In this document: positions 1-54,235 of the stretch, piece by piece
How the letters are laid out: the number at the start of each line of letters is the position of its first letter
Position numbering within the stretch: position 1 is the stretch's first letter
DNA from: a virus
Taxonomy: Duplodnaviria; Caudoviricetes
Reading direction: 5' to 3' (one strand)
Virus record (IMG/VR): IMGVR_UViG_3300029985_000050
Coordinates: 1 to 56,130 of that record
Length of the DNA: 56,130 nt
Notes under the pieces: generated by a model
Databases searched by the model: none
Told to the model about the DNA's origin: nothing
What the model saw: only the letters and a program-made list of their open reading frames with translations
Position numbers and translations under genes: made by a program

Positions 1-421
1 CGGGGCGGATGCTGACGACTTCGACAAATACTGCTCTCCGAACTTCAATGATTTTCGGAATAAAGCCAGTACGCTACTCCAGCTTTTAGAGCGCCAGCTC
101 GAGGTGGGGCTATTGTCTGGTTTTCTTGGAATTTTCCGCCCAAGGACTCAAAAATAAATACAACTCCAAAAACAGACCACCAAGACCTTGAAGAAACTCT
201 ATCACAGGGTCCTCACTTATTTTTCCGAGGTTAGCTCTTCGATCACGCAGATACGTTCAGACACCCCAGAGCATTCAGAATCCACAGCCACTGCCTATAC
301 GCAAGCCCGTGGATACTCCAAGAGTTGTAGATACCGTTTACAAACAAAAGAAAAAAGCAAGTGAATTGCAGATAGATAGCCCACTTATTCACAAACATGA
401 TTCAACCCCTCCTGCAACCCC

Positions 422-486
422 ACCTAACAATCCGCTTCCACCGGCGATTTGGCTTCGCCAAACGCGGTGAAGACGGAGCGTTAGGT
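422..486 (+). repeat. attC site 1 (65 bp)
   Basis: ACCTAAC (R'', RYYYAAC) at 422-428 and GTTAGGT (R', GTTRRRY) at 480-486, with an imperfect inverted repeat between. Confidence 0.85.
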
Positions 487-540
487 GGACGCCTACGCGG
501 CGCAGCGATGAAATGGAACAAACCATGAAAATAGCTGCAA

Positions 541-1431
541 ATGAATAACCGCAAAATAGCTGCAATTTTGATAGCTGCATTCGCATGGTCAGTACCCAAT
601 GCCTACGCACAAGAAAATAACCCCGAAAACAAACATGCAGATAGCGCCAGCCAATGGAAGGGTACTAGAGTCCATGTGCTTAAAGCAAACACGATTGTAC
701 CTCAAAAGCCTATCGCCAGGGTTGGCATACTCGCCGTTGACTCCCTCGTAATTAAGAATCCAATTTGCGTAGTCTTCAGTCCGACGATCATACCGCCTGT
801 CAAGATGGCCGATGAAGGCCCCAAGGCAGATAAGCAAAATTCCACCGCAAATGAGCCATTCTTTACAAAATGGAAAGATGTCATTGCCGCCCTCGGTATG
901 TTCGGTGCGCTGGGGGTTTCCCTCGGAGCCCTGTGTATCTCCATACGCGCTCTGCACTACACCGGCAACCTGTTCCGAGTCACACGAAACGGAGCTGCGT
1001 CGCAAATTAGGGAGAGCAAAAACCTTATTGGAATCACTTCGGATACTGCCAATAGGCAGCTTCGGGCTTACGTTGGAATCACCGATGTGCGAAGCTACGC
1101 CGACAAGGTGACGTTCGGCATTAGCAACTACGGGCAAACCCCGGCCCAAGATGTTCTGGTTTGGGCGAACTGTGGGGAAACTGCCTTGTCTACCGAAGAT
1201 CTCAAAACTTTTCGCGAGAATGATGTGTCTGCCGGAACTTTGTGGCCTGGAAATCTGACGCGAAGAGGTGTGGATCGGAATGGCCTCGAGAGCCCGTTTA
1301 CCTTTCGCGGTGTGCTCACCTACACCGATATTTTCAAAAAATCCCACACCACCACATTCCAATACTTCGTGATGGACATTCCTGGGATTCACAAATCCGG
1401 CCCCCACGACAAAGGAAACTCCTTCACATAG
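541..1431 (+). CDS. Cassette protein, paralog 1: signal peptide, TM helix, conserved C-terminal domain
   Basis: MNNRKIAAILIAAFAWS leader; hydrophobic VIAALGMFGALGVSLGALCISI; RQLRAYVGI..NYGQTPA..YTDIF..TTFQY..GNS motifs shared with the next three cassettes. Confidence 0.8.
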   Translation: MNNRKIAAILIAAFAWSVPNAYAQENNPENKHADSASQWKGTRVHVLKANTIVPQKPIARVGILAVDSLVIKNPICVVFSPTIIPPVKMADEGPKADKQNSTANEPFFTKWKDVIAALGMFGALGVSLGALCISIRALHYTGNLFRVTRNGAASQIRESKNLIGITSDTANRQLRAYVGITDVRSYADKVTFGISNYGQTPAQDVLVWANCGETALSTEDLKTFRENDVSAGTLWPGNLTRRGVDRNGLESPFTFRGVLTYTDIFKKSHTTTFQYFVMDIPGIHKSGPHDKGNSFT

Positions 1432-1449
1432 CAAAATGAACGAAATTAC

Positions 1450-1513
1450 ACCTAACAATGCCGTTCCTCCGGGATTCCGCTGCGCTCCACCCGGAGAACA
1501 GGCTCCGTTAGGT
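1450..1513 (+). repeat. attC site 2 (64 bp)
   Basis: ACCTAAC...GTTAGGT hairpin; same sequence as the site at 4295-4358. Confidence 0.85.
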
Positions 1514-1567
1514 GGACGCCTACGCGGCGCAGCGATTGATGAGATAGCTGCAAAATGAAAGCAACAA

Positions 1568-2344
1568 ATGAATAACCGCAAAATAGCTGCAATTTTGATA
1601 GCTGCATTTTCATTTGCAAACGTCTACGGTCAAAAAAGCGGCAATGCTGATGACAAAGCAAATGGCGCACCCAATTCCAAACAAGTAGAGAAAAAAGGAA
1701 ATGATTCGAGCGATTACCGCCGCCACCATGTAGGTCAAGCCCCACTGTCTATCGAAGCGGTCGATACCCCAGTAGTCAAGATCGTAACCACGACAAATAC
1801 CGAAAACTGCCAGGAGAAAGAAAGCAACTACCCCTACTGCCGAATAAAGCAGTGGTTCGTGGACAACAAAGACCTGCTCTCGGGAATCGCTACGATTATT
1901 GCGGCAATTGGCGTCTGCATCAGCATTTTTGTTGCCCGAAACACGCAGAGTGTGGGACGTAGGCAGCTGCGCGCATATCTTGGAATTTCCGAGTTTGGTC
2001 TCAGCACCTCCTGCGTGATGTTCACCATTAAGAACTACGGATTGACGCCGGCAAAGAAAGTGCGCATTTGGTGTGATTGTCCCGATACAGAAAGATGGCC
2101 TGCGCTGATAAAGTGGCTTCCGAAGCACGGTATTTCCGACGGAGATCTCATGTGGCCCGGGGATACCTTGGACCGGAAAAGTGTTCGAGTCGGATTGACC
2201 GAGGAATTTTTTGCGAACGGTAAAATCAGCTACACCGATGTCTTTGGGAACCGGCAAGTGACGACATTCCAGTACTCGATTCAGAAAGGCCCTAGTGGGA
2301 TTCTTCGATGCGTTGCTCACACCAAAGGCAATTCCGCCACATAG
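1568..2344 (+). CDS. Cassette protein, paralog 2
   Basis: Same N-terminus; TM LLSGIATIIAAIGVCISIFVA; RQLRAYLGI/NYGLTPA/YTDVFG/TTFQY/KGNSAT. Confidence 0.8.
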   Translation: MNNRKIAAILIAAFSFANVYGQKSGNADDKANGAPNSKQVEKKGNDSSDYRRHHVGQAPLSIEAVDTPVVKIVTTTNTENCQEKESNYPYCRIKQWFVDNKDLLSGIATIIAAIGVCISIFVARNTQSVGRRQLRAYLGISEFGLSTSCVMFTIKNYGLTPAKKVRIWCDCPDTERWPALIKWLPKHGISDGDLMWPGDTLDRKSVRVGLTEEFFANGKISYTDVFGNRQVTTFQYSIQKGPSGILRCVAHTKGNSAT

Positions 2345-2365
2345 CAAAACAAATGAACAAATCAC

Positions 2366-2430
2366 ACCTAACACGCGCCTTCCACCCGGATTCCGGCAAG
2401 CCGGAACCGTGTGAAGAGCGGGCGTTAGGT
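2366..2430 (+). repeat. attC site 3 (65 bp)
   Basis: ACCTAAC...GTTAGGT imperfect hairpin. Confidence 0.85.
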
Positions 2431-2487
2431 GGACGCCTACGCGGCGCAGCGATGAAATGAACAAAGCAACAATGGAAATAGCTGCAA

Positions 2488-3237
2488 ATGAATAACCGCA
2501 AAATAGCTGCAACTTTGATAGCTGCAATAGCGTCATCGGTACATTCCCAAGAGATAAGGGATGTTCACTATACTTCGCACATTACCGCACAGATAGCAGC
2601 AAAAGATACCGCAAACGATACCCAAACCCCCAATCATCCATCGAAGCGCGGAGATACGGCCAAGCGTCGCGAAGGAAATACCGATACAGGGGCCAAAAAT
2701 AATGATCCCAAGAAATCCGATGAACTTTTCCCAGCTGCAAATTTCCTCAAGGTGCTTGCTACAGACTATGGTAATGATATTCTGGCGCTCATCGCATTGG
2801 GGGCTCTCGCCGCTGGTATCTGGACTGCCTGGATTACTCGCACTAACGGAAATCGGCAACTTCGGGGCTACGTTGGTGTCGAGGATCTGATTTTTGCCGA
2901 TCCCCACACCACGCTCACAATTAAGAACTATGGGCAAACGCCCGCTAGTGATGTGAAAGTCTGGCTTGACTGGGGTTCTCCCTCGAAGGACTCTACTACG
3001 CTCAGAGGAGATCCTCAAGGGCAGGTATTTGAACGCGGAGTTATCAACCCTGCCAAAACCACTGCCTGTGCGCACCCGTGCAGAGGCCCAGTAACTGGAT
3101 TCTTTATCTATGGCACGATCAGCTACACCGACATTTTTGGCGAGAATCAAACAACTACTTTCCAATACATTGTCGGATACCCGCCCGGCAGGCACCCTAC
3201 CTGCACCGTCCATTCCGAAGGCAATTCCGCAACATGA
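2488..3237 (+). CDS. Cassette protein, paralog 3
   Basis: MNNRKIAATLIAAIAS; TM ILALIALGALAAGIWTAWI; RQLRGYVGV/NYGQTPA/YTDIFG/TTFQY/EGNSAT. Confidence 0.8.
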   Translation: MNNRKIAATLIAAIASSVHSQEIRDVHYTSHITAQIAAKDTANDTQTPNHPSKRGDTAKRREGNTDTGAKNNDPKKSDELFPAANFLKVLATDYGNDILALIALGALAAGIWTAWITRTNGNRQLRGYVGVEDLIFADPHTTLTIKNYGQTPASDVKVWLDWGSPSKDSTTLRGDPQGQVFERGVINPAKTTACAHPCRGPVTGFFIYGTISYTDIFGENQTTTFQYIVGYPPGRHPTCTVHSEGNSAT

Positions 3238-3258
3238 CAAAACAAGTGAACAAACCCC

Positions 3259-3323
3259 ACCTAACAATCCGCTTCCACCGACGATCCCACTTCGTGGGAC
3301 GCGGTGAAGACGGAGCGTTAGGT
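3259..3323 (+). repeat. attC site 4 (65 bp)
   Basis: Same arms as site 1 (CCTAACAATCCGCTTCCACCG...CGCGGTGAAGACGGAGCGTTAGG), different apical stem. Confidence 0.85.
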
Positions 3324-3403
3324 GGACCCTCCGGGCGGGATTTAGCTGCAATGAACGAAATAGCTGCAATGGGAATAGCTGCAATGAACGAAATGAACAA
3401 ATC

Positions 3404-4300
3404 GTGAAAATAGCGGCAATACTGCTCATCGCAATTTCTATTGCTGGTGCTGATTCAATACCACGCATTAAAGACTCCATCCCGAAAGACTCTGTACGCA
3501 ATCCCAAGATGGAAAGCGCTGTCCACAATCAGCCCGGCACTGATAAACACCCAGCGAAGGTGGATTCTGTGCCGCCCCGTCCCCGGGTAGTTCTCGGCAG
3601 TCCACAGCGCAGCGTAAATTCTACCACAAAACACGATTCCATTGAGGGCCAGAGTAACCAAGTAGCAAATAGCGGCAAAAAGATAGACTCTCCTTGGGCA
3701 CTCATTTGGGTAGCTGTTGCTGCCATCGCGGCTTTGATTCCGGCGCTCTTTGGCCCAGCTCCCATTATCGCTGCGTTCAGATGGCTCAACTCCCGAAATC
3801 GCCGAGGTATTCCCAAGGCTGGCGCTGCCGACCAACAACCGATTAGCACAGCCCCGCCGCAAATTATTACCGCTGCCACGCAGCGACTTCCCAACCCTAC
3901 CGCGCAACAACCGATAATTCAGATTTTGGACATTCTTTACAAAAGAAACAGTACAGTCCTCACGATCACAAACCAAGGTTTGGCCCCAGCTAGATCCGCT
4001 GAAGTCTGGGCATCCTGCGGAGAGGTCGCACAGACTACCGAGGTTCTCCAAAGAATTCCCGGGGAGCCTCGTCACCTCGGTGTAATCGCGCCAGCCAGTG
4101 TCTGCACGCTCAATGCACCCAAAGAAGAGGATCTTCACCTCCCCTACTTCGTGTACGGACGAGCCACCTACGTTGATTCTTTTGGGGTGCCCCATCTCGA
4201 TACTTTTCAATGCGTAATCACCGGCATCGAATCCGGATCTTGGAATTTCCATTCCGAAGGCAATTCCACCACACAGCAAAATGAACGAAATTCTACCTAA
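3404..4300 (+). CDS. Cassette protein, paralog 4 (more diverged; stop codon lies in the attC R'' box)
   Basis: KIAAILLIAISIAGA signal; TM WALIWVAVAAIAALIPALF; NQGLAPA/YVDSFG/DTFQ/EGNS; CAG where the paralogs have their stop. Confidence 0.75.
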   Translation: MKIAAILLIAISIAGADSIPRIKDSIPKDSVRNPKMESAVHNQPGTDKHPAKVDSVPPRPRVVLGSPQRSVNSTTKHDSIEGQSNQVANSGKKIDSPWALIWVAVAAIAALIPALFGPAPIIAAFRWLNSRNRRGIPKAGAADQQPISTAPPQIITAATQRLPNPTAQQPIIQILDILYKRNSTVLTITNQGLAPARSAEVWASCGEVAQTTEVLQRIPGEPRHLGVIAPASVCTLNAPKEEDLHLPYFVYGRATYVDSFGVPHLDTFQCVITGIESGSWNFHSEGNSTTQQNERNST

Positions 4301-4358
4301 CAATGCCGTTCCTCCGGGATTCCGCTGCGCTCCACCCGGAGAACAGGCTCCGTTAGGT
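4295..4358 (+). repeat. attC site 5 (64 bp)
   Basis: Same sequence as attC site 2. Confidence 0.85.
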
Positions 4359-4379
4359 GGACGCCTACGCGGCGCAGCG

Positions 4380-4574
4380 ATGAAATGGAACAAAGCAACA
4401 ATGGATTTTGAACTATTCCGGTATGAATCCTCAGCATTATTCCAATTACTCATGAAACTAGACAAGAAGAAGCCTGGGAAAGACGATTTGAATGTTTGGA
4501 GTTCCCCTGATTGGAACGCATTCAACGTCGCCGTATTGGAGTTATTGTGCATTGCTGAACGACAGCTCAGATGA
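4380..4574 (+). CDS. Small hypothetical cassette protein
   Basis: ORF directly after attC5 and its leader; start at 4380 or 4401. Confidence 0.4.
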   Translation: MKWNKATMDFELFRYESSALFQLLMKLDKKKPGKDDLNVWSSPDWNAFNVAVLELLCIAERQLR

Positions 4575-4659
4575 CATCCAGAACCTTCAGCAACCCCCAA
4601 AAACCTATTGCCGAACCTACCCACGGAAAGATTTGGAGCCACAAATCAACGATCCACAT
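4567..4659 (-). CDS. 30-aa hydrophobic peptide MWIVDLWLQIFPWVGSAIGFWGLLKVLDVI
   Basis: Translated by hand; preceded by a GGAGA RBS within the 39-bp repeat that also starts ORF 5012-5314. Confidence 0.45.
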   Translation of the reverse strand: MWIVDLWLQIFPWVGSAIGFWGLLKVLDVI

Positions 4660-4771
4660 TTAAAATCTCCCAGTTCGTCGGTGGAATGAACAAATCATGG
4701 TAATGGCTGCAAATGAATAACCACAAAATAGCTGCAATGAGCAGCCGAACAGCAAACAACAAAGGAACGAA

Positions 4772-5059
4772 ATGAGCCACTCCACTTTTCGCGAAGCAAT
4801 CCTTCCGTACCACATCCAAGCAAATTCGGACGGAACCCACACGGTGAGGAATCGCCAAAATGCGCCGATCTTCGAAAATATCCGATTTGAAAAATTGCCG
4901 CCGAAAACTGCCGCCAAAATTTCATTCAATGGGTCTGAAGACATCTCGAGCGTGTATCTGTACTGGGGAGGTGCTCCCCCGAAAACCAAGAAGCTCAAGG
5001 CGGAGTACTTTCTACGCCTTGCTCTGCTGTGCGATCTTTCGGTCACACACGAGGCGTAA
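4772..5059 (+). CDS. Hypothetical cassette protein (95 aa)
   Basis: AAGGA RBS; preceded by the cassette leader motif. Confidence 0.65.
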   Translation: MSHSTFREAILPYHIQANSDGTHTVRNRQNAPIFENIRFEKLPPKTAAKISFNGSEDISSVYLYWGGAPPKTKKLKAEYFLRLALLCDLSVTHEA

Positions 5060-5314
5060 TGCTTCCCAGAAGGAAATGGCTCCAGGAATGTCCTTCGCAT
5101 TTTCGCAAGCCAGCGCGATGGAGTCGGCGGGAACGTCGTGATTTTCCCACTCCTCCATCACACGCTTTTTGCCGAAGTGCTCCAGGAGAATGTCGGCATT
5201 CTTTGTTTTTCCGCAACCCTGCGGGCCCCAGATCAAGACGCCACGGACTTTCACATCCTTGGGATTCTTGTGGCCTGGCTTCTTCGGGGAATAGGTCTCA
5301 AAGGGACTTCCCAT
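5012..5314 (-). CDS. Small P-loop protein
   Basis: Walker A VLIWGPQGCGKT; GGAGA RBS. Confidence 0.65.
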   Translation of the reverse strand: MGSPFETYSPKKPGHKNPKDVKVRGVLIWGPQGCGKTKNADILLEHFGKKRVMEEWENHDVPADSIALACENAKDIPGAISFWEALRLVCDRKIAQQSKA

Positions 5315-5363
5315 TTCAAATCTCCCAGTTCGTCGGTGAAATGAACAAATGCAAGAAAATCAC

Positions 5364-5428
5364 ACCTAACGCCGCCTGTTCACGGTGGCCGGACGCAGTC
5401 CGGCCACCGTGAACAGGCGGCGTTAGGC
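5364..5428 (+). repeat. attC site 6, perfect palindrome, array terminus
   Basis: Arms 5365-5394 and 5398-5427 are exact reverse complements with a 3-nt loop; ACCTAAC...GTTAGGC. Confidence 0.8.
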
Positions 5429-5472
5429 TCAGAATATAGTTTCACAACTCTGAAAATCCAACAACTTTCTGC

Positions 5473-5703
5473 TCACCCCGCTCGAAGGGAGTTCGAGGTG
5501 GTGCTGGTGGCCCTGTCGGACTTCAAAACGGGCTTGGGAGGGCTCGCAACTTCGTCATCGGTCCTGAATCTGGCCCGCTCCACGACCTCGATATCGACTT
5601 TCGAAGGTGCGTCGGAGTTGATGTGCAGCGAAATGGAGCCGTGATGCATGGATTTTGCCCTTTTGACGATGAATTCTAGCGTTTCGTCGCTGATTTCGGC
5701 CAT
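5473..5703 (-). CDS. Hypothetical protein (76 aa)
   Basis: Abuts the portal stop; GGAG RBS. Confidence 0.6.
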   Translation of the reverse strand: MAEISDETLEFIVKRAKSMHHGSISLHINSDAPSKVDIEVVERARFRTDDEVASPPKPVLKSDRATSTTSNSLRAG

Positions 5704-7518
5704 TTACTCCCCGTTTTCCTTCAAGATGGTCTCCAGAACGCCCTTGAGGTCGCCTCCGTCGTGCCGGAACGCGAGCAACGCCACCAAAAGTGCATCCGGA
5801 TCGTCCTGGTGGTCCATCAAGGCCTTCCGGAGGGCGTCGATTCGGTCTCCGGTGATTCGATTCGACCTTCCGGGCTTGTGGACCGCGCTCGCGCCGGGCT
5901 GGGTGACGCCCTTCTTCTGCTTCCCGCCGATGCTCCCTGGTGTGGACCTGGTTTTCGTCGCTTCCTTGAGGTTCACGGAGGGTGCCGCGGCGGTTTTGGA
6001 GGCGGTGGCGTGCGGAGTTGTCTGCCCACCCTCGGTCGTTCCCGAGTTTCCATCTTCTTCGCCCTGCACCGTTCCTGGAAGGGGCTCGCCGTCGTTGTCC
6101 AGGCCGAGCTGGAGGAAGAACGGATTCGGCGGCGGGTTGTTCGCCTCCTCGGCGGTGAGGCTGGTGTTGTTCGAGTACCGCCCGCCGTACCGATTCCGGC
6201 GGATCTCCAGGGCGGACAAAATGCCATTGATGAAATCTAGACTGTCTGCTTGAGACGTTTTATAGCGCACGTCGGCCGCGTCCTTCTCATTCATGCTCCA
6301 GACTGGGCGGAACTTGATCGCGTACTCGTCCGGGTCGACGTCGGGAAGGGCGGAAGCCCCAATCCACATGGTCAGGGCCTCCACCGGGGCGCGCAGGTAG
6401 AGTCCCTGTAGGGCCTCGACGCTGTCGTAATACTGGCGGGCATCTCCCTCGCCCGTCGCATTCATCCCGGCAGCGCCGCGGCCAAACAGGAGCGAGACGG
6501 GGATGTTCACGTCCGCGCTCACCCGCATCATCATCCGATCCACCACGTCGGCCACGCCTGCGAACTCGAGCTTGTCGCGGGTGTAGTCCTCGTCCTCGGC
6601 CAGCATCACGCCGTGGAGGTAGTTCTTGGAGAGCTCGATGTTCGCCATGCGCTGTTCGATCGCGCCGTAGTCCTTGGCGAGAAGGAGCTGCTTCAGGTTC
6701 TTGATCTTGTACTTTCCGATCACCGACTCCTGCATCAGGTTCGAGATCGCGTTCCAGGAAAGCCCCATGTTCGACAAGCTGTCGAACGCAGCCTGGATGA
6801 CTCCAAACCCCCAGTAGCGGCGGTAGATGTCCATACCCGGGTAGACCCGATCGGGCGTTGGGTCACCACGCCACTCCACCACGCGTGTCCAGTGGATCTC
6901 GTAGGGCGGGCCGTAGACGCGCCGGACGGTGAAGTATGCGGGGAGATCGTAGCGCACTGACTCCGGGTCGGTGTCCAGGTCCGTAGGCATGATCCAGATC
7001 TCGGCGGCCGAGTGGGTGCGCAGGCCCAGGAGCTTCTGCGGGTTCTCGGGGTCGAACTTGAACGGCGCCGAGAGGGGCTTGCCGTCGTCCCAGAGTAGGA
7101 TGGTGAGCGCCCCGCCGAAGAGCCGGGTCCACTGCAGGGCCTCGCCGAAGTGCTTGCGTACCTTCAGCCGATCCATCTGCTTCACGATCTTCCCGTCCGG
7201 ATCGCCGTCGATGTCCCACCCGTTGCGGGTGGCGTCGTCGGCCAGCATCTTCACGATCCGCTTCCCCAGCCCGTCGCCGATGTAGAAGGCGGAGAGCTCG
7301 GGGAAGGTGAGCATGTACGGCGGGTTGACCTGGTTTGCCGTCGTGCGGTCCTTGCCGCGCACGCCGGACCCTGTCACGAAGTTCCGGAAGCTGTCGTTGT
7401 GGAGGTACACCTCGCGGAGAATCCCCTCGTTGACGCGCGCGCCCAACGAAGGGCGACGCTGCATCGCCTTTGCCGCCGCGGCTTGCTCCGCCTGGATGAC
7501 TTCGAGTTCGTTGGGCAC
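5704..7518 (-). CDS. Portal protein (DUF1073/HI1409-like) with low-complexity C-terminal tail
   Basis: Downstream of terL; motifs KRIVKMLADDATRNGW, RLFGGA, IHWTRV, IPVSLLFGRGAAGMNATGEGDARQYYD. Confidence 0.85.
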   Translation of the reverse strand: MPNELEVIQAEQAAAAKAMQRRPSLGARVNEGILREVYLHNDSFRNFVTGSGVRGKDRTTANQVNPPYMLTFPELSAFYIGDGLGKRIVKMLADDATRNGWDIDGDPDGKIVKQMDRLKVRKHFGEALQWTRLFGGALTILLWDDGKPLSAPFKFDPENPQKLLGLRTHSAAEIWIMPTDLDTDPESVRYDLPAYFTVRRVYGPPYEIHWTRVVEWRGDPTPDRVYPGMDIYRRYWGFGVIQAAFDSLSNMGLSWNAISNLMQESVIGKYKIKNLKQLLLAKDYGAIEQRMANIELSKNYLHGVMLAEDEDYTRDKLEFAGVADVVDRMMMRVSADVNIPVSLLFGRGAAGMNATGEGDARQYYDSVEALQGLYLRAPVEALTMWIGASALPDVDPDEYAIKFRPVWSMNEKDAADVRYKTSQADSLDFINGILSALEIRRNRYGGRYSNNTSLTAEEANNPPPNPFFLQLGLDNDGEPLPGTVQGEEDGNSGTTEGGQTTPHATASKTAAAPSVNLKEATKTRSTPGSIGGKQKKGVTQPGASAVHKPGRSNRITGDRIDALRKALMDHQDDPDALLVALLAFRHDGGDLKGVLETILKENGE

Positions 7519-7965: not shown

Positions 7966-9276
7966 TCAAGAGTACATCACACGGGCGGTCTTCTCCTCCT
8001 CGGGGAAGAACACCTCGCGCAGGAGAGAGGCGGCGGAGTCCGGCACGTCGTCGGGCTCGGCGTCCTCGGTGTAGTCCGCGATCTGCATCATCGCCTCCGG
8101 GTCGGAGTCGTTCGCCCAGACGATCTGGTGCCAGTGGTGGCCCAGATAGTCGTGGATCTTCTCGTGCTTCTTCTGGCTCTCGTGGTAGGACTCGCATACG
8201 AGCCAACGCTCCTCCTCGAACGTCTCGAACACGCGGGCCAGCATGCCCTTGTCGGAATTCGTCTCCAGGTGGAGCTCGTGGCAACCGCGCCGCTCCAGCT
8301 CCACCATGATGGCGGGCTTGGCCTTCTCAGCCGAGCAGGCCCACTTCTTGACGAACAGCTGGAGGCGTCCGTCCTCCCGATTCGACCCGATGGTGAGGGC
8401 CGTGGTGTCTCGTCCCCCGTAGGCGGCGTCCAGCTGGGCGACCTTGCGGAAGTTGTTCTGCTGCCAGGGTCCCATCACGGGGTTCTGGAACTCCATGTCG
8501 TCGGCGTTGACGTGCTCGAGTTCGTAGTTGGCCGCCCACATGGCCTTGGTCATGGTGGCTTTTTTCAACTCGATCTCTTCGGGGGAAAGGATCCCGGTCG
8601 AGAAGACGTCGAACTTCATGGGGTTGATGCCCATCCCCTTCAGCATCTCCCAGGCATCTTCCTTGTGCCACGGGGTCCCGACCACACGGGCGAAGCGCCC
8701 TGGGTCCAAGATGTTCGTCAGGATTTCCTGCAGGTTCGCACGCGTGCTCTCCCGCTTGGCCCTGGAGTACCGGTCCTTCATCGAGATGGCGTCGTCCACG
8801 AGGATCGTGTCGTAGTGGGAGCCGACGGGGACGGTGTCGATACCGTAGGCGTCGAGGCTTCCTTCCTTCGTGATGGATCCCTTGAAGTTGAACGTGAGCC
8901 GCCCGTCGCGGTTCACGATCTTCTCCGGGTAGAACCCGTGGAAGGCGCGGAACAGCTCCTGGATCAACTCGTGCTCCATGTAGAGCCCGATGGTCTTCAG
9001 GGAGTCGTTGGCGACGGACCATGTCTCCCGCACCAGCGCGACGCGGTCGTCGGGGTGGAGGAGGAAGTTCCGGATGGAGCCGATTTCGGTGACGGCGGTC
9101 GTCTTGTACGCGCCACGATGGGCCTGGATCGCCGTGTGCGTCTGGGGGTCCCAGACGGACTTGATCCAGTCCGAGTGCATGGGGGTGAGCTTCTTCTTGC
9201 CGACCAGGTGGCCGATCAGGTGTGGGTATTTCCCAAGGCGGCGGAGCTGGTCAGGCGAGTAGAAGTCGCATCTCAA
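7966..9276 (-). CDS. terL: Terminase large subunit
   Basis: Walker A-like HRGAYKTT, Walker B ILVDD, VGTPWHKED, nuclease QLDAAYGGRD...PDDVPD. Confidence 0.88.
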   Translation of the reverse strand: MRCDFYSPDQLRRLGKYPHLIGHLVGKKKLTPMHSDWIKSVWDPQTHTAIQAHRGAYKTTAVTEIGSIRNFLLHPDDRVALVRETWSVANDSLKTIGLYMEHELIQELFRAFHGFYPEKIVNRDGRLTFNFKGSITKEGSLDAYGIDTVPVGSHYDTILVDDAISMKDRYSRAKRESTRANLQEILTNILDPGRFARVVGTPWHKEDAWEMLKGMGINPMKFDVFSTGILSPEEIELKKATMTKAMWAANYELEHVNADDMEFQNPVMGPWQQNNFRKVAQLDAAYGGRDTTALTIGSNREDGRLQLFVKKWACSAEKAKPAIMVELERRGCHELHLETNSDKGMLARVFETFEEERWLVCESYHESQKKHEKIHDYLGHHWHQIVWANDSDPEAMMQIADYTEDAEPDDVPDSAASLLREVFFPEEEKTARVMYS

Positions 9277-9809
9277 GGGAGGGATCCGGCTTCGGAGAAG
9301 ATCTGGCTTGCTTCACGGCGAGCCTCGTCGGAAACTCCACGGGCACGGCCAGCGTCCTCGCCGCGGTACTTCGCTCGGTTCGCCTTCAGAACTTCCTTGA
9401 GCAGACCACCGTCGTAGCGGGTGACGTAGCCAGCGAGTCCGCCGTCCTTGGTGAACACCGGCTCGTCCCACCCGAGGATCCCGCGCTTGAAGGCGGCGTC
9501 TTCTGCGACGTCGATTCCGATGTCCCATGCCTGGGAGAGCTTGAGGGAGAATTCGGGGTCCGCCTCGGCTTTGGCTCGGACATCCTGCGGGGTGAGGGCA
9601 GTTCCTTTGAGCGCGTCCTCGCGGATCGGCATCTCGGAAAGCTGGCGAAGGTACAAATCGAAGCCGGTGGGCTTGGTTGGGGGCGGTGTCTTTGCGGGCG
9701 CGATGGGGGCGGGGCTCGCGGCAGGCGCCGGAGACGGGGTGGGCTCGGAAGACTTTTTCCTGGGAGGTGCCACGAGAAAGAGCGTACTTTGGCACGGCAA
9801 ATTTGTCAA
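9273..9809 (-). CDS. Putative terminase small subunit (start uncertain)
   Basis: 4-bp overlap upstream of terL; GWDEPVF..G..RYDGGLL..LKA..KYR pattern. Confidence 0.65.
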   Translation of the reverse strand: MTNLPCQSTLFLVAPPRKKSSEPTPSPAPAASPAPIAPAKTPPPTKPTGFDLYLRQLSEMPIREDALKGTALTPQDVRAKAEADPEFSLKLSQAWDIGIDVAEDAAFKRGILGWDEPVFTKDGGLAGYVTRYDGGLLKEVLKANRAKYRGEDAGRARGVSDEARREASQIFSEAGSLP

Positions 9810-23219: not shown

Positions 23220-24074
23220 ATGCTGACCATGGCCCATCACACACCCAAGAACGCGCCGAGCACGACCACCGCGCTCATCAACATCGACCAGAAGCTCGCC
23301 GAGGCCGCCGGGAGCACCGCCGTCGAGAAGCCCTCCGGAGGCACCAAGATCTCCACCAAGGGCGGCAAGCTCACCTACGGCGGCACGCAGTTCCCCAACA
23401 ACGAAGTGGACGTGATCGTCCTGGAGTTCGCGGCGAAGAACACCTACTACGCCGGAGCCTACGACCCGGACAACGTCGCCCCGCCCGACTGCTTCGCGAT
23501 CGAGCTGGCCGTGGGCAAGGACTTCGAGGACAACCTCAAGCCCCACACGAACGTCGAGGAGCCGGTGAACCCCACCTGCCACGGCTGCAAGTGGAACGAG
23601 TTCAAGTCGGCCGACAACGGCAAGGGCAAGGCCTGCAAGAACCGGCGCGACCTGGCCGTGATCCCCGCCACCGTGCTGGACGAGGCCGACGTGGCGAAGG
23701 CCATCGCCGACGCCGAGATCGCGGTGTTCTCCGTGTCCCCCTCGAACATCTCCGTGTGGAAGGGATTCGTCGCCGGGATCGCCCGCCAGTCGCTCCCCAT
23801 CTGGGGCGTGACCACGCGGATCGGGCTCCCATCCGTGTTCGACCAGTCGTTCCAGGTCGTCGACGGCGGCGACCTCAAGCCCAAGCTCACCCAGGCCGTG
23901 TGGGACGCGCTGGAGAAGAAGCGTGCGGAAGCCCGCGACCTTCTCGTGGTGCCCTACGAGCCCCTGAGCGAGGAGCAGAAGGCCCAGGCCGCGGCGCCCA
24001 AGGGCCGTCAGGCGGCTCCGTCCGGGCGTTCGGCGCGCTTCACCGCTCCGGTGGCGGCGGGCAAGAAGAAGTAG
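23220..24074 (+). CDS. Putative ssDNA-binding/annealing protein
   Basis: PDCF..CHGCKWN.F.S...GKGKACKNRR motif upstream of the polymerase; function inferred from context. Confidence 0.55.
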   Translation: MLTMAHHTPKNAPSTTTALINIDQKLAEAAGSTAVEKPSGGTKISTKGGKLTYGGTQFPNNEVDVIVLEFAAKNTYYAGAYDPDNVAPPDCFAIELAVGKDFEDNLKPHTNVEEPVNPTCHGCKWNEFKSADNGKGKACKNRRDLAVIPATVLDEADVAKAIADAEIAVFSVSPSNISVWKGFVAGIARQSLPIWGVTTRIGLPSVFDQSFQVVDGGDLKPKLTQAVWDALEKKRAEARDLLVVPYEPLSEEQKAQAAAPKGRQAAPSGRSARFTAPVAAGKKK

Positions 24075-24196
24075 TTCTCACGAGCAGGCCAGTGGAGGAC
24101 CCGTTTCTCTCTGGCACAGGCCCCGGCAGACCTCCTCTTCGGAGTAAGCTGTTCTGCCGGGGTTCCTTTGTTCACTTCAACCACAACGAGAAACCC

Positions 24197-25324
24197 ATGT
24201 TGAGAATCAACACCGAAAAGCCGTACAAGATCTTCGCGGAAGTCCTGGAGCAGGGCGCGCTCGACCAGTTCGAGAGCGCCCTGCTCCAGGACTTCGCCGT
24301 GCAGGGTGCCCTTATGCCCGACGCCCACTTCGGCTACTCCCTGCCCATCGGCGCGGTGGTGGCCACCAAGGACTTCGTGGTGCCTGCCTGGGTGGGCTAC
24401 GACATCGGCTGCGGCATGTGCGCCTTGCCGACGAGCTTCGATCGCGGCGCCGTGGAGTGGTGCGCCAAGGGGATCTTCGACGAGATCTACCAAGCCGTTC
24501 CCGTCGGGTTCTCCCACAACCACGCACCGACCACCTGGGAGCACGCGGGGCTCTTGCCGTGGTCCGCCCGTATGGAGGAGATCTTCTCCAGGGACGGACT
24601 CAGGCAGATCGGATCCCTTGGCGGCGGCAACCACTTCATCGAGATCGGCGCTGACGAGACGGGGAAGGTGTGGATCATCGTCCACTCCGGTTCCCGCGGA
24701 ATCGGCCACGCGACCGCATCCCACTACATGCGGCTGGCCAGCGGATCCGGCAAGGCGAAGGAGGGGCACTTCGGACTCCACGTCGACTCGGACGACGGCT
24801 CCGACTACATCAAGGACCTCGCTTTCTGCCTGGCCTTTGCCTTGGAGAACCGCAGGCAGATCGCCGTTCGTGTGGAGGCGGTGCTTGCCGGGTTCGCGCG
24901 CGAGGGTGGCTCCGCTTCCGGCGAGTGGGAGATCCTCATCAACCGGAACCACAACCACGCGGAACTGCGCGAAGGCCTTTGGATCCACCGCAAGGGCGCC
25001 ACCCACGCCGAAGCAGGCATGGTGGGCGTGATCCCCGGCAACATGCGCGACGGCTCGTTCATCGTGCGCGGCAAAGGGAACCCAGACGCGCTCTGGTCCT
25101 CTTCCCACGGGGCAGGTCGGTGCCTGGGCCGCAAGGAAGCCCAGCGAACGCTCACACTGGAGCAGTTCACTGAAAGCATGGTGGCCGTCGTAGCCAAGGT
25201 GGACAAGGATACCCTGGACGAATCGCCGTTCGCTTACAAGGACATTTTCAAGGTGATGGAGCAACAGAAGGACCTCGTCGAGGTCGTGGCGCACATCAAG
25301 CCCATCATCAACATCAAGGGGTGA
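24197..25324 (+). CDS. rtcB: RtcB-family RNA ligase
   Basis: MPDAHFGY..PIG, VGYDIGCGM, GSLGGGNHFIE, HSGSRG, HNH, HRKGAT, PGNM, SHGAGR, DESPFAYK. Confidence 0.95.
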   Translation: MLRINTEKPYKIFAEVLEQGALDQFESALLQDFAVQGALMPDAHFGYSLPIGAVVATKDFVVPAWVGYDIGCGMCALPTSFDRGAVEWCAKGIFDEIYQAVPVGFSHNHAPTTWEHAGLLPWSARMEEIFSRDGLRQIGSLGGGNHFIEIGADETGKVWIIVHSGSRGIGHATASHYMRLASGSGKAKEGHFGLHVDSDDGSDYIKDLAFCLAFALENRRQIAVRVEAVLAGFAREGGSASGEWEILINRNHNHAELREGLWIHRKGATHAEAGMVGVIPGNMRDGSFIVRGKGNPDALWSSSHGAGRCLGRKEAQRTLTLEQFTESMVAVVAKVDKDTLDESPFAYKDIFKVMEQQKDLVEVVAHIKPIINIKG

Positions 25325-52314: not shown

Positions 52315-53846
52315 AGCGTACCGTAGGCGATGTAGGTGCCGTTCGGGATCTCCGCCACGTTTCCGGGGCCGAGCACGATGGGCCCTGCGACGTAGGTGCT
52401 GCCGTCTGTGGAGACCGTCACCTGCGCGTTTCCGATCCCCGGCACCGTGTAGATGGGGGCCAGGAACCTCGGCGCGATCACGTCCTTGCCTGCGGTGAAC
52501 TCCGCCGCCGCCCACGCGAGAATTGCGGTCGTGATCGCCGCGTTGCCTGGGAAGGACTCCTCGGTGTAGAGGTCGTAGAGCACCTTCACCCAGATGAGCG
52601 TCGCCGTCGGAATGTTGAAGGAGACGTTGTGCAGGGTCCCTTGGGAGTCCGGCACCGAGCGCGTCGTGTTGCCCCCCGTGGCGATGCCTGCGGGTTTGCT
52701 GGCCCACACCGCGTTGGCGATGGCCTGGGGATCTCCGCCGACCACGGTCGCCGTCACGGAATGCGCTGGGGTGTAGGCGTCGATCGCCGTGTCGCCGTCG
52801 TTGGAGGACACCGCCACGGTGGAGACACCGGCCACGTTGTCGTAGATGTAGGCGGTCATGGCGGCGGGAGTGGAGAGCCCAAGGCCGATCTGTTGTGCGC
52901 GGCGCAGGCGCAGGGCGTCGTCGGTCTCCACGTCGCGACCAGGAACGCCGGGCACGAGGTTCGTCACGAAGGCCCAGCCGGTCTGCGGGGAGACGATCGC
53001 CGTCAGCTCGTTGATCGCCACGGTCTGGGCGCCGGTCACGTTGCAGATGAACGAACCCTGGGAGCCGATGAGATCCGTCGTCCACTGCGAGTTCGAAGGG
53101 TTAGCCGACGAGTAGGAGTACGGGGTCATCGGGTGCTGAAGCCGAAGGACCACGCCCGTCGGGAACTGCTCACCGCCAACCGCGTCCGTCGTCGGGTACT
53201 GGATCACGCCGCTGGACCAGACCTGGGCCACGCCAGGAAGCGTCGGCGGTGTGGGGGTGCCCCAGGTGCCTGCGTTGATCGCGATGGCGAGCAGATTCAT
53301 CGTGTTGATGGCCCGCGTCGTGGCGTCCGCGTCCGAGGTCGCGGTCACGGAGAAGCTGCCGAACGATGTGACCAGCGTCACCGTGGCACCGATCGCTGGC
53401 ACGGTGCCGAACGACAGGTAGAGGTCCTGGCAGGAGCCCGACGAAATGACGGCGTTGGTGGATAGGGAGAATACCACCGCCCCCCTCACCCGTCGGGCCG
53501 TGCTGCCAGAAGGAATCGTTACCCCGTCGTTGGCGGGGAGAGCGTAGAGATTCGCGTACACCGTGGACTCCGCCGCGGCGATACGCACGACGCCCGTGTA
53601 GGTGCAGATGCGGTCCAGGGCCGCACCGGAAGCCTGTGCCGGATCCATGGATGCATAGACCTCCTGAGTCGCGTCCCACATGTCGCCCAGACCTGCGGCC
53701 TCCAGGCCCAGGAGCTGTCCCGTGGGGCCTTCGGCGGAGGTGTCGATCGTCGGGCCGAAGAACGAGACCATCGCGGCGTTGAGGCTGGAGAGGATCTGCT
53801 GGAGCGTGCGGGCGACGAAGCCCGTGGCTGTGACGTAGGTTCCCAT
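52311..53846 (-). CDS. Baseplate J/gp47-like protein
   Basis: ASGAALDRI, GRDVETDDALRLR, IANAVWASKPAGI. Confidence 0.88.
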   Translation of the reverse strand: MGTYVTATGFVARTLQQILSSLNAAMVSFFGPTIDTSAEGPTGQLLGLEAAGLGDMWDATQEVYASMDPAQASGAALDRICTYTGVVRIAAAESTVYANLYALPANDGVTIPSGSTARRVRGAVVFSLSTNAVISSGSCQDLYLSFGTVPAIGATVTLVTSFGSFSVTATSDADATTRAINTMNLLAIAINAGTWGTPTPPTLPGVAQVWSSGVIQYPTTDAVGGEQFPTGVVLRLQHPMTPYSYSSANPSNSQWTTDLIGSQGSFICNVTGAQTVAINELTAIVSPQTGWAFVTNLVPGVPGRDVETDDALRLRRAQQIGLGLSTPAAMTAYIYDNVAGVSTVAVSSNDGDTAIDAYTPAHSVTATVVGGDPQAIANAVWASKPAGIATGGNTTRSVPDSQGTLHNVSFNIPTATLIWVKVLYDLYTEESFPGNAAITTAILAWAAAEFTAGKDVIAPRFLAPIYTVPGIGNAQVTVSTDGSTYVAGPIVLGPGNVAEIPNGTYIAYGTL

Positions 53847-54235
53847 CAAATGCTCCCTTGGACGGCTGTGCCGTCGGTGGCGATGGCGGAGAATTTCACG
53901 TAGAGCGTCCGCGTCGCGGAATTCAGCGTGCAGACGACGGAGACCACCGAGGCCACGCCGGGCACGAGCGCGATCTGCGCTGCGAAATACCTCTGGAGGG
54001 TGGCGAGATTCGGTCCCTTGATGAGTACCTGCCCGACGTAGTCGATCCCGATGGAAGGGTCTTGGTACCACTCGCCCAGCATGGTGCGTAGCCGGGTGAT
54101 GACCGCCTGGGCCACGACGGCGTTGGTGACTTGGTGGAACTTCAGTTGCCCGGTGGGATCCAGGTAGAGGTCGTACATCGGCGTGGCGATCGTGGGGTCC
54201 ACGGCGTCGATCCCGAGGGCGATGGTCGTGCTCAT
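53846..54235 (-). CDS. Baseplate wedge/sheath initiator (gp25-like)
   Basis: QAVITRLRTMLGEWYQDPSIGIDY motif. Confidence 0.75.
   Translation of the reverse strand: MSTTIALGIDAVDPTIATPMYDLYLDPTGQLKFHQVTNAVVAQAVITRLRTMLGEWYQDPSIGIDYVGQVLIKGPNLATLQRYFAAQIALVPGVASVVSVVCTLNSATRTLYVKFSAIATDGTAVQGSI

Follow-up and report, generated by a model that had tools for sequence, protein, structure and literature searches.

Integrons are usually seen as bacterial gene-capture devices that are spread by plasmids and transposons. Clusters of attC recombination sites in phages were first reported in 2023, from isolate genomes and a laboratory IntI1 assay (Qi et al., 2023; PMC9892861). For phage genomes, the parts of that study used here describe three complete integrons, one In0 and 17 CALINs (clusters of attC sites lacking an integron integrase); of six attC sites from virulent phages that were tested, five were recombined by IntI1. 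Here, we describe an attC cassette array in a single viral contig of 56,130 nt (IMGVR_UViG_3300029985_000050; Caudoviricetes), which is the entire, incomplete record and is hereafter called the window. We consider it likely that the array is a CALIN carried in the genome of a virulent-type peat myovirus, between its portal and head-protease genes. An initial annotation of the window had presented a phage-borne array as new biology; given the CALINs described by Qi et al. (2023), the kind is already known and the locus is a well-documented addition. New here are the carrier, an uncultured phage from peat, the position of a comparatively long array between portal and protease genes, the likeness of its attC type to that of Acidobacteriota integrons, and natural variation pointing to ongoing recombination.

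The closest described arrays are those of Tetrasphaera phage TJE1, Pseudoalteromonas phage PH101 and Polaribacter phage P12002L, which in the relevant passages of Qi et al. (2023) are CALINs without intI in genomes without a lysogeny module, as here. The cassettes of TJE1 and PH101 also share one orientation, and the TJE1 CALIN adjoins a terminator-like palindrome with an inverted GTTRRRY that resembles the boundary site of the peat phage. Compared with what is described for these three phages, the peat array has at least seven sites (including attC_L, the head-side boundary site) and at least six cassettes, occupies the portal-protease gap and consists mostly of one paralog family, and relatives differ in their cassettes at the core site. 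The same source describes Va_90-11-286_p16, a prophage of Vibrio anguillarum whose genome is likewise bounded by attC. That element is a demonstrated inducible prophage in the Vibrio superintegron with 68-bp direct repeats, whereas in the peat phage the two boundary sites differ, no host DNA was seen and the genome looks virulent. The gene order itself has a parallel in the Yokohamavirus PEi21, an Edwardsiella phage (NC_021342.2), where the portal gene (product ~30% identical) is followed by six open reading frames (ORFs; five on the opposite strand), protease, structural protein and major capsid protein (MCP). No repeats or attC sites are annotated between portal and protease in the PEi21 record, on which no scan with our attC model (R1, below) was made. 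The consulted portions of a preprint on permafrost mobile genetic elements (10.1101/2025.02.12.637893) and of a myxophage preprint contain nothing on phage CALINs.

attC sites and their bacterial counterparts

Repeat finding and a simple fold-based scan identified six palindromes, imperfect except for the last, with RYYYAAC...GTTRRRY ends at positions 422–5428 and none elsewhere in the window (Table 1). All have the same orientation and are spaced 0.9–1.07 kb apart. Each starts with ACCTAAC and finishes with GTTAGGT, or with GTTAGGC at the last site, where the G lies at 5422 and TTAGGC at 5423–5428. Canonical attC palindromes measure 57–141 nt and, when the bottom strand folds, expose extrahelical bases opposite the AAC (G16 and T23/24) that are separated by a stem of six pairs (Nivina et al., 2016; PMC5027507). 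The folded bottom strands of the seven distinct imperfect cassette sites have a bulged G18, a bulged or unpaired T25/26 opposite the AAC and about six pairs in between. These bulges are shifted by +2 from the canonical positions; the fit to the rules in the consulted passages of Nivina et al. (2016) is otherwise good. Two head-side boundary sites have C16/17 and T24/25 instead, and the perfect palindrome folds without bulges.

We also searched the window with R1, a covariance model built from 11 attC sites of two Acidobacteriota metagenome-assembled genomes (MAGs), with zero phage sequences, and run unfiltered. R1 recovers all six sites on the plus strand at 27.4–35.1 bits (E 2e-7 to 4e-5); the best unrelated match on either strand of the window reaches 14.4 bits (E 0.25). 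At the five imperfect sites the plus strand leads the minus strand by 10–17 bits, but at the perfect palindrome its lead is only 1.7 bits. Because R1 matches them to bacterial sites and the bulges of the imperfect ones agree with the published rules (PMC5027507, in part), the six palindromes are, by sequence and predicted fold, attC sites.

The bacterial sites behind R1 came from pattern searches of bacterial genomes. A strict attC pattern had 0 matches in 185,579 species genomes, and a looser one matched two loci, both in Acidobacteriota MAGs. The looser pattern that located these source loci was itself derived from the phage sites, but in each locus it matched a single site; R1 used 10 of the 11 sites of one MAG (G004; a 98-nt site was excluded) plus one site of the second. 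Contig C52 of G004 has eight sites in one region (L053) and three more in another (L055), which are probably one array. The L055 sites stop 135 nt from an ORF that matches the integron integrase model TIGR02249 at 245.7 bits, under the cut-off of 265 and over the N-terminal two thirds only. Along this gene (L055:3602–4687), which points in the same direction as the cassettes (inverted type), the PF00589 match is split over two frames, which suggests a frameshifted gene or a long-read assembly error. The G004 sites (69–76 nt, apart from the 98-nt one) have CCTAAC...GTTAGG boxes like the phage sites, which a model built on them detects. Furthermore, the GC content of the G004 array (0.56–0.58) is below that of its backbone (0.65), as in the phage. 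The G004 array ends at an integrase gene, whereas the phage array has none; its sites are 83% alike, no cassette is common to both, and the strict phage pattern is absent there. The phage host is probably an Acidobacteriota bacterium.

The likeness to attC could in principle be convergent, the hairpins being the phage's own repeats (terminators or REP-like elements) between tandem paralogs that were never IntI substrates. This would accord with four paralogous cassettes sharing a leader of ~35–100 nt, with a strict site pattern that matches no bacterial genome, with the lack of an integrase in the phage, and with a first word-index search that found the cassette protein family in 6 clusters only, all matching the window's own cassettes (31–100% identity). 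We find it very hard to reconcile with a model of bacterial sites that recovers all six palindromes in the right orientation or with bulges that obey the attC rules described in PMC5027507. Moreover, two cassettes of the window (c0 and c5) and a cassette of a relative (L030 cassette X) lie outside the paralog family, yet stand behind the same kind of site. The composition of the array differs as well: GC is 0.50 at window positions 1–5428 and 0.63 in the remainder, with a sharp step at 5428, and GC at third codon positions (GC3) is 0.54–0.55 in array ORFs versus 0.8–0.9 in neighbouring phage genes, which indicates that the array is foreign to the phage. Finally, one cassette exchange between relatives is confined to 8 nt at the G|TT crossover point (see below).

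The junction between array and portal operon

According to the initial annotation, the last attC ends at 5428 and the portal operon 44 nt later, and both features are found there. The portal gene is present in nine viral contigs of other samples. Four of these extend past the small ORF that ends the operon, and all four (L002–L005, 92–99.5% identical) run on into attC and cassette DNA. L003 is 99.5% identical to the window over 6,779 nt, reaching back to window position 4107, and L004, L002 and L005 are 98.9%, 97% and 92.5% identical, respectively. In L002 the small ORF is interrupted by an HNH_3 homing-endonuclease gene. This 277-aa gene, AP2-like by eye, is an in-frame insertion at L002:5650–6483 (corresponding to window 5505–5683), with a ribbon-helix-helix-like ORF ahead of it; a matching joint (5496 to 5683) occurs in sequencing runs X18 and X19.

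Of the 24 listed peat runs, 20 contain 82% or more of the words sampled from window positions 1–7000. As a rough guide only, the depth of cassette contigs follows that of backbone contigs in four runs (for example, 13.5–24 versus 26 in X1 and ~50–56 versus 50 in X16). The sharp GC step at 5428 and a perfect 63-nt palindrome exactly at the joint are what a chimeric assembly would look like, with a bacterial array joined to a phage at the palindrome. However, the joint is crossed by four independent contigs, of which two have an imperfect site there; the stretch is present in 20 runs; the depths match, within the limits of that guide; and a 66,707-nt contig unites cassette, backbone and head proteins. 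A chimera is therefore extremely improbable, and the misassembly at the palindrome that the initial annotation had considered is contradicted.

The palindrome itself varies. It is perfect in the window and L003, where the right arm is matched base for base by the complementary left arm and loop, but L004, L005 and part of run X1 have an imperfect 67-nt attC, with the usual bulges in L004 and L005. X1 contains both forms, the imperfect one at a depth of 7.85 of 18.2. The perfect palindrome was probably derived from an imperfect attC by quasi-palindrome correction through template switching. Based on the results for deletion of extrahelical bases in the consulted passages of PMC5027507, it should lose strand choice.

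Searches of viral contigs for an empty site, using the spacer beside the small ORF, returned only the four known contigs. The cassette leader was found in L003 only, and neither the c1 protein nor a 30-mer of c0 was found. A 419-nt contig in both X16 and X19 equals window 1–419 exactly, and the IMG contig likewise begins at position 1; the c0 segment 1–419 thus appears to be bounded by branch points. In X16, window 1–419 also continues into an alternative sequence in place of attC 1. The X16 and X18 bins without cover and two records of 59,509 and 123,086 nt that touch the stretch briefly were not interpreted.

The head side of the array

Terminase and portal genes are followed by the array in the window, and the initial annotation had taken it to stand in place of the head genes. 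These genes lie past the right end of the incomplete contig. The gene at that end is present in eleven viral contigs. In one of them (L013, record G001) the queried protein is identical, and the overlap with the right end of the window is 99.8% identical over 5,989 nt. Upstream on the same strand, L013 has a tail-fibre-like gene and genes for the tape measure protein (TMP), tube, sheath, neck, MCP (phrog_264, 4.5e-80) and a structural protein. The first 2.4 kb of G001 (L022) encode a 505-aa DUF2213 head maturation protease (PF09979, 5e-36), and then comes the boundary attC.

Two relatives show what lies beyond this site. G002 reads through it and, in window plus orientation, has the DUF2213 leader, a 56-nt attC-like site (attC_L, 18.7 bits with R1), GTTAGGTGGACCC and the 5' end of c4. 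L030, with a head region 92–94% identical, has attC_L (17.6 bits), c3 (97.8% identical), a site identical to attC 1 and a cassette absent from the window. Cassette DNA is thus flanked by phage morphogenesis genes at either end, and the cassettes at the two ends share one orientation. The first element of the array in G002 and L030 is a palindromic attC immediately next to the head-gene leader, where a complete integron would have intI and attI. A scan of viral contigs for the DUF2213 protein returned only four known contigs. G001, G003 and L028 begin inside the palindromic boundary site, their first base being the pairing partner of the crossover G; this base is position 1 of L022 (the start of G001), L024 and L028, three head-side contigs of different samples. 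TTAGG is common to all continuations seen, so a break at exactly this base is only partly explained.

Cassette order varies at the crossover point

The relatives carry different cassettes behind the same sites. Behind the site type at 3259 stands c4 in the window but the phage flank in L002, where the site runs into the same six bases (TTAGGC) that end the last site of the window. The two parents share only the 8 bases GCGTTAGG at the exchange, which is too short for ordinary homologous recombination and fits site-specific recombination at G|TT. Similarly, c4 stands behind the 3259-type site in the window and behind attC_L in G002, c3 behind the 2366-type site in the window and behind attC_L in L030, and attC 1, which precedes c1 in the window, has an identical counterpart in L030 that precedes a new cassette. 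Alternative neighbours at cassette borders also occur within single runs; for example, the end of c5 adjoins a 422-type site or precedes a new site, and a new cassette comes after attC 4. In three of the three relatives compared, the cassettes are less diverged than the backbone: c5b of L005 is 96.6% identical and its portal backbone 95.4%; c3 of L030 is 97.8% identical and its head-region backbone 92–94%; and the c4 fragment of G002 is 98.7% identical and its right-end overlap backbone 94.8%.

Cassette differences located exactly at G|TTAGG among relatives suggest a host integron integrase acting in trans. During infection, such an enzyme would act on the folded attC sites of replicating phage DNA and would excise, insert and swap cassettes at G|TTAGG, the phage serving as the docking platform and the host as the source of the enzyme. 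We tentatively propose that a virulent phage keeps an integrase-less attC platform serviced by host IntI, with a continuous trade of cassettes between phage and host that is recorded as differing orders in peat phages 92–99% identical. Should a host integrase act in this way, phages would both carry cassettes from cell to cell and draw on the cassette pool for accessory genes of their own. The locus contributes a natural population in which the same phage backbone has different cassettes with breakpoints at the recombination core, and a possible link, via the attC type, to the integrons of Acidobacteriota, a hard-to-culture phylum. In a bolder variant, the same site would serve the phage as a way into and out of host arrays, so that lysogeny would borrow the SOS-controlled IntI of the host; the locus is a concrete test case for attC x attC recombination as a route to lysogeny.

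Carried by the phage or host DNA beside it

The array has the composition of a CALIN (at least two attC sites and no intI nearby): the window has six attC sites, relatives have another at the far boundary, and an integrase is lacking. The initial annotation had reported no integrase, tRNA or host gene at the junction, and scans of the window found 0 tRNAs, 0 tyrosine recombinases (PF00589) and 0 serine recombinases (PF00239), with no host gene seen. Contigs G001 and G002 likewise have 0 matches to PF00589. An ordinary prophage next to a chromosomal array, one of three options in that annotation, is thus not supported: the window, G001 and G002 contain no phage integrase, no conventional att repeat (attL/attR) and no host gene. 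Of the other two options, cargo carried by the phage is best supported, and integration of the phage at a terminal attC predicts the same two junction types.

A composite map of 56,130 + 11,658 + ~490 nt (~68.3 kb) runs from the head-operon leader through attC_L, c0–c5, the last attC and the 44-nt spacer to the operon of small ORF, portal, terL and terS. In this order the circular closure of the ~68-kb map is deduced, and the unseen ~490 nt cannot hold an integrase. The window itself puts c0 upstream of c1–c5 and the portal. A one-residue variant (P0355) of the 170-aa c0 protein has a longest contig of 19,974 nt, and the same figure is listed for the exact MCP and TMP and for one variant each of the sheath and tube proteins. 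This common figure places c0 beside the head side, where the initial annotation had advised looking for head genes left of the array. In X1, a 15,191-nt contig, known by its extent only, continues unbroken for 14,684 nt to the left of window position 1, whereas contigs break at every cassette border inside the array; 20 of the 23 aligned X1 contigs are at least 99% identical to the window. As a weak check by coincidence, 15,191 equals 507 + 492 + 14,192, so that the X1 contig would end at window 53,597, where G002 also ends; the same arithmetic, equally weak as a check, leaves 357 nt for the c0 ORF and ~135 nt for a leader. The longest listed contig (66,707 nt) is a figure common to c1–c4, portal, terL, tube and head-side proteins, but has only 1,162 nt to spare and cannot bridge the map.

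Integration would involve a phage of ~62 kb, whose genome would begin with the small ORF and close with the leader of DUF2213, that entered a host cassette array by recombination of attC_L with a host attC via host IntI, so that the flanking cassettes would be host DNA. Both expected junction types are seen: host attC(..G)|TTAGGC-phage in the window and L002–L005, and attC_L(..G)|TTAGGT-cassette in G002 and L030. L002, with the 3259-type site by the phage, and G002, with attC_L by c4, are complementary products of an insertion between c3 and c4 in the cassette order of the window. Such a route would also suit a phage without an integrase of its own and the divergence of attC_L, which goes along with that of the phage backbone, and it has a precedent in the Vibrio prophage flanked by attC sites, as described in PMC9892861. 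However, c0, the leftmost portal-side cassette, shares the 19,974-nt figure with head and tail proteins; with c0 beside the head genes, integration would need c0 on both sides or another insertion point. Although the attC-like attC_L at the far end of the phage is what the initial annotation had predicted for this option, the circular attP form (attC_L joined to TTAGGC-TCAGAATATAG) was found in 0 of 4 portal-side and 0 of 2 head-side junction contigs. These six junction-crossing contigs contain no host gene either, and 66,707 nt is the greatest length among the listed contigs. The genes are those of a virulent-type phage. It would be unusual for an attP to interrupt a late operon, whereas PEi21 has accessory, moron-like ORFs at the same spot. 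We therefore regard integration as unlikely and favour a CALIN carried by the phage.

Several observations pull in the other direction. No single contig spans head genes, array and portal, and closure rests on the X1 contig and on equal longest-contig figures. The latter are indirect, and one chance match of numbers arose in this analysis. Every junction seen is also expected from integration of the phage into a host array. The boundary sites reach only 17.6–18.7 bits with R1, and all sites have an extra T14 bulge on the AAC arm that the consulted passages of PMC5027507 do not describe. Some cassette junctions share up to ~35 nt of leader, and homologous recombination could therefore explain part of the variation. 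The host link is weak and partly circular, as the strict pattern matches none of the species genomes and the two MAG loci came from a looser, phage-derived pattern. Lastly, promoter and terminator scans of the array and the head-gene leader stayed at or below shuffle level, with no promoter-like site for the cassettes; a hairpin followed by a T-run is visible in the head-gene leader, with a loop that exceeds the limit of that terminator scan.

Cassettes and their cargo

The cassettes are read opposite to the flanking late genes. The ORFs of c1–c4 are paralogs (26–40% identical to c1) with a common signal-peptide-like start, a conserved C-terminal domain and a shared leader of ~35–100 nt. A profile of the four paralogs, run against 1.84 billion representatives, matched 2,803 proteins (E <= 0.001), and the best 150 of these matches are mostly 200–330 aa long. 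Pfam had no match for c1–c4 or for six single-domain bacterial relatives. Giant Big_9/cadherin proteins matched by the family profile (A1) were rejected as homologs because the match is a short repeat-like stretch. The AlphaFold model of c2 (mean pLDDT 81.6) predicts an N-terminal hydrophobic helix, a disordered stretch, a long transmembrane helix and a beta-sandwich, with blocks of residues 91–258 at pLDDT 78–97, mostly above 90. Its Foldseek neighbours have low TM scores (0.27–0.5) and include archaeal pilins, FlaF/FlaG, ApaG and uncharacterized phage membrane proteins; the best viral one, a weak match, is an uncharacterized transmembrane protein of Rhizobium phage RHEph01. We assigned no function from these neighbours, nor from an ESM Atlas pointer to PF28748, which was unconfirmed. 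The cargo would thus be mainly paralogous membrane-anchored beta-sandwich proteins, and we can only guess at a role in modification of the host envelope or superinfection exclusion.

Cassette c5 is composite, with three small ORFs on both strands. It contains a 39-nt repeat (4657–4695 and 5312–5350) and a degenerate cassette leader (4685–4767), which together suggest two cassettes fused following the loss of an attC. Copies of the 39-nt element are 95% identical, and one also occurs at L005:5824–5863. The element has a GGGAGA-type ribosome-binding site and an ATG and lies ahead of three different minus-strand cassette ORFs, much like a portable translation start that serves genes running in the direction of the phage late genes.

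Table 1. Features of the cassette array, the adjoining portal operon and the right end of the window (positions in nt; bits and E values are those of model R1).
Feature	Position	Strand	Description
c0, 3' part	1–421	+	ORF 2–157, C-terminal 51 aa of the 170-aa predicted membrane protein P0351; GC 0.46
attC 1	422–486	+	65 nt, closes c0; 30.6 bits, E 4.7e-6; G18 and T26 bulges opposite AAC
c1 ORF	541–1431	+	296 aa; predicted signal peptide or transmembrane segment, transmembrane helix and C-terminal beta-sandwich; paralog family A1
attC 2	1450–1513	+	64 nt, identical to attC 5; 33.8 bits
c2 ORF	1568–2344	+	258 aa, paralog; modelled transmembrane helix 101–133 and beta-sandwich 138–250
attC 3	2366–2430	+	65 nt; 35.1 bits, E 2.2e-7
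c3 ORF	2488–3237	+	249 aa, paralog; first cassette past the head-side boundary attC in L030
attC 4	3259–3323	+	65 nt; 31.2 bits; site type abuts the phage flank directly in L002
c4 ORF	3404–4300	+	298 aa, paralog; stop TAA inside the R'' box of attC 5; first past the boundary attC in G002
attC 5	4295–4358	+	64 nt; 33.8 bits
c5, composite	4359–5363	both	three small ORFs
c5 ORF	4401–4574	+	57 aa
c5 ORF	4772–5059	+	95 aa
c5 ORF	5012–5314	-	100 aa, P-loop motif GPQGCGKT; phrog_14685
attC 6, last site	5364–5428	+	perfect 30+3+30 palindrome; 27.4 bits on + versus 25.7 on -
Spacer, array to phage operon	5429–5472		44 nt, conserved in L002–L005
Small ORF, last gene of portal operon	5473–5703	-	76 aa; stop codon 44 nt beyond the last attC
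Portal protein	5704–7518	-	PF06381, 7.8e-65; phrog_146, 5e-88
Small ORF between portal and terL	7525/7602–7943	-	
terL, terminase large subunit	7966–9276	-	phrog_38, 9.1e-42
terS, terminase small subunit	9273–9809	-	phrog_4044, 2.3e-11
Tail-module gene at right contig end	54948–56130	-	

Gene content of the phage

No terminal repeat was found at the two ends of the contig. The window encodes an RtcB protein, a family A DNA polymerase (PolA), an SNF2 helicase, a DUF3854/DUF5906 primase-like protein, ThyX and an ATP-dependent ligase for replication and nucleotide metabolism, a lysis region with a patatin-like protein and a GH108 lysin, and tail fibre and baseplate genes on the minus strand at its right end. 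Scans of the window returned 0 Rfam families, and 0 of 10 early ORFs matched a PHROG of the integration and lysogeny category. By this gene content (PolA, primase, SNF2 helicase, ThyX and ligase), the phage, which we read as an uncultured myovirus from peat, is of the virulent type.

Six related viral contigs stop inside the baseplate J-like region around window 53,100–54,200 (at 53,105, 53,155, 53,597, 54,183, 54,212 and 54,693), which points to a hypervariable or repeated segment. The RtcB-like ligase (window 23591–25324) has 577 aa and two stretches matched by Pfam, the best of which covers residues 329–577 only. This suggests that the protein has a large N-terminal extension or insertion.

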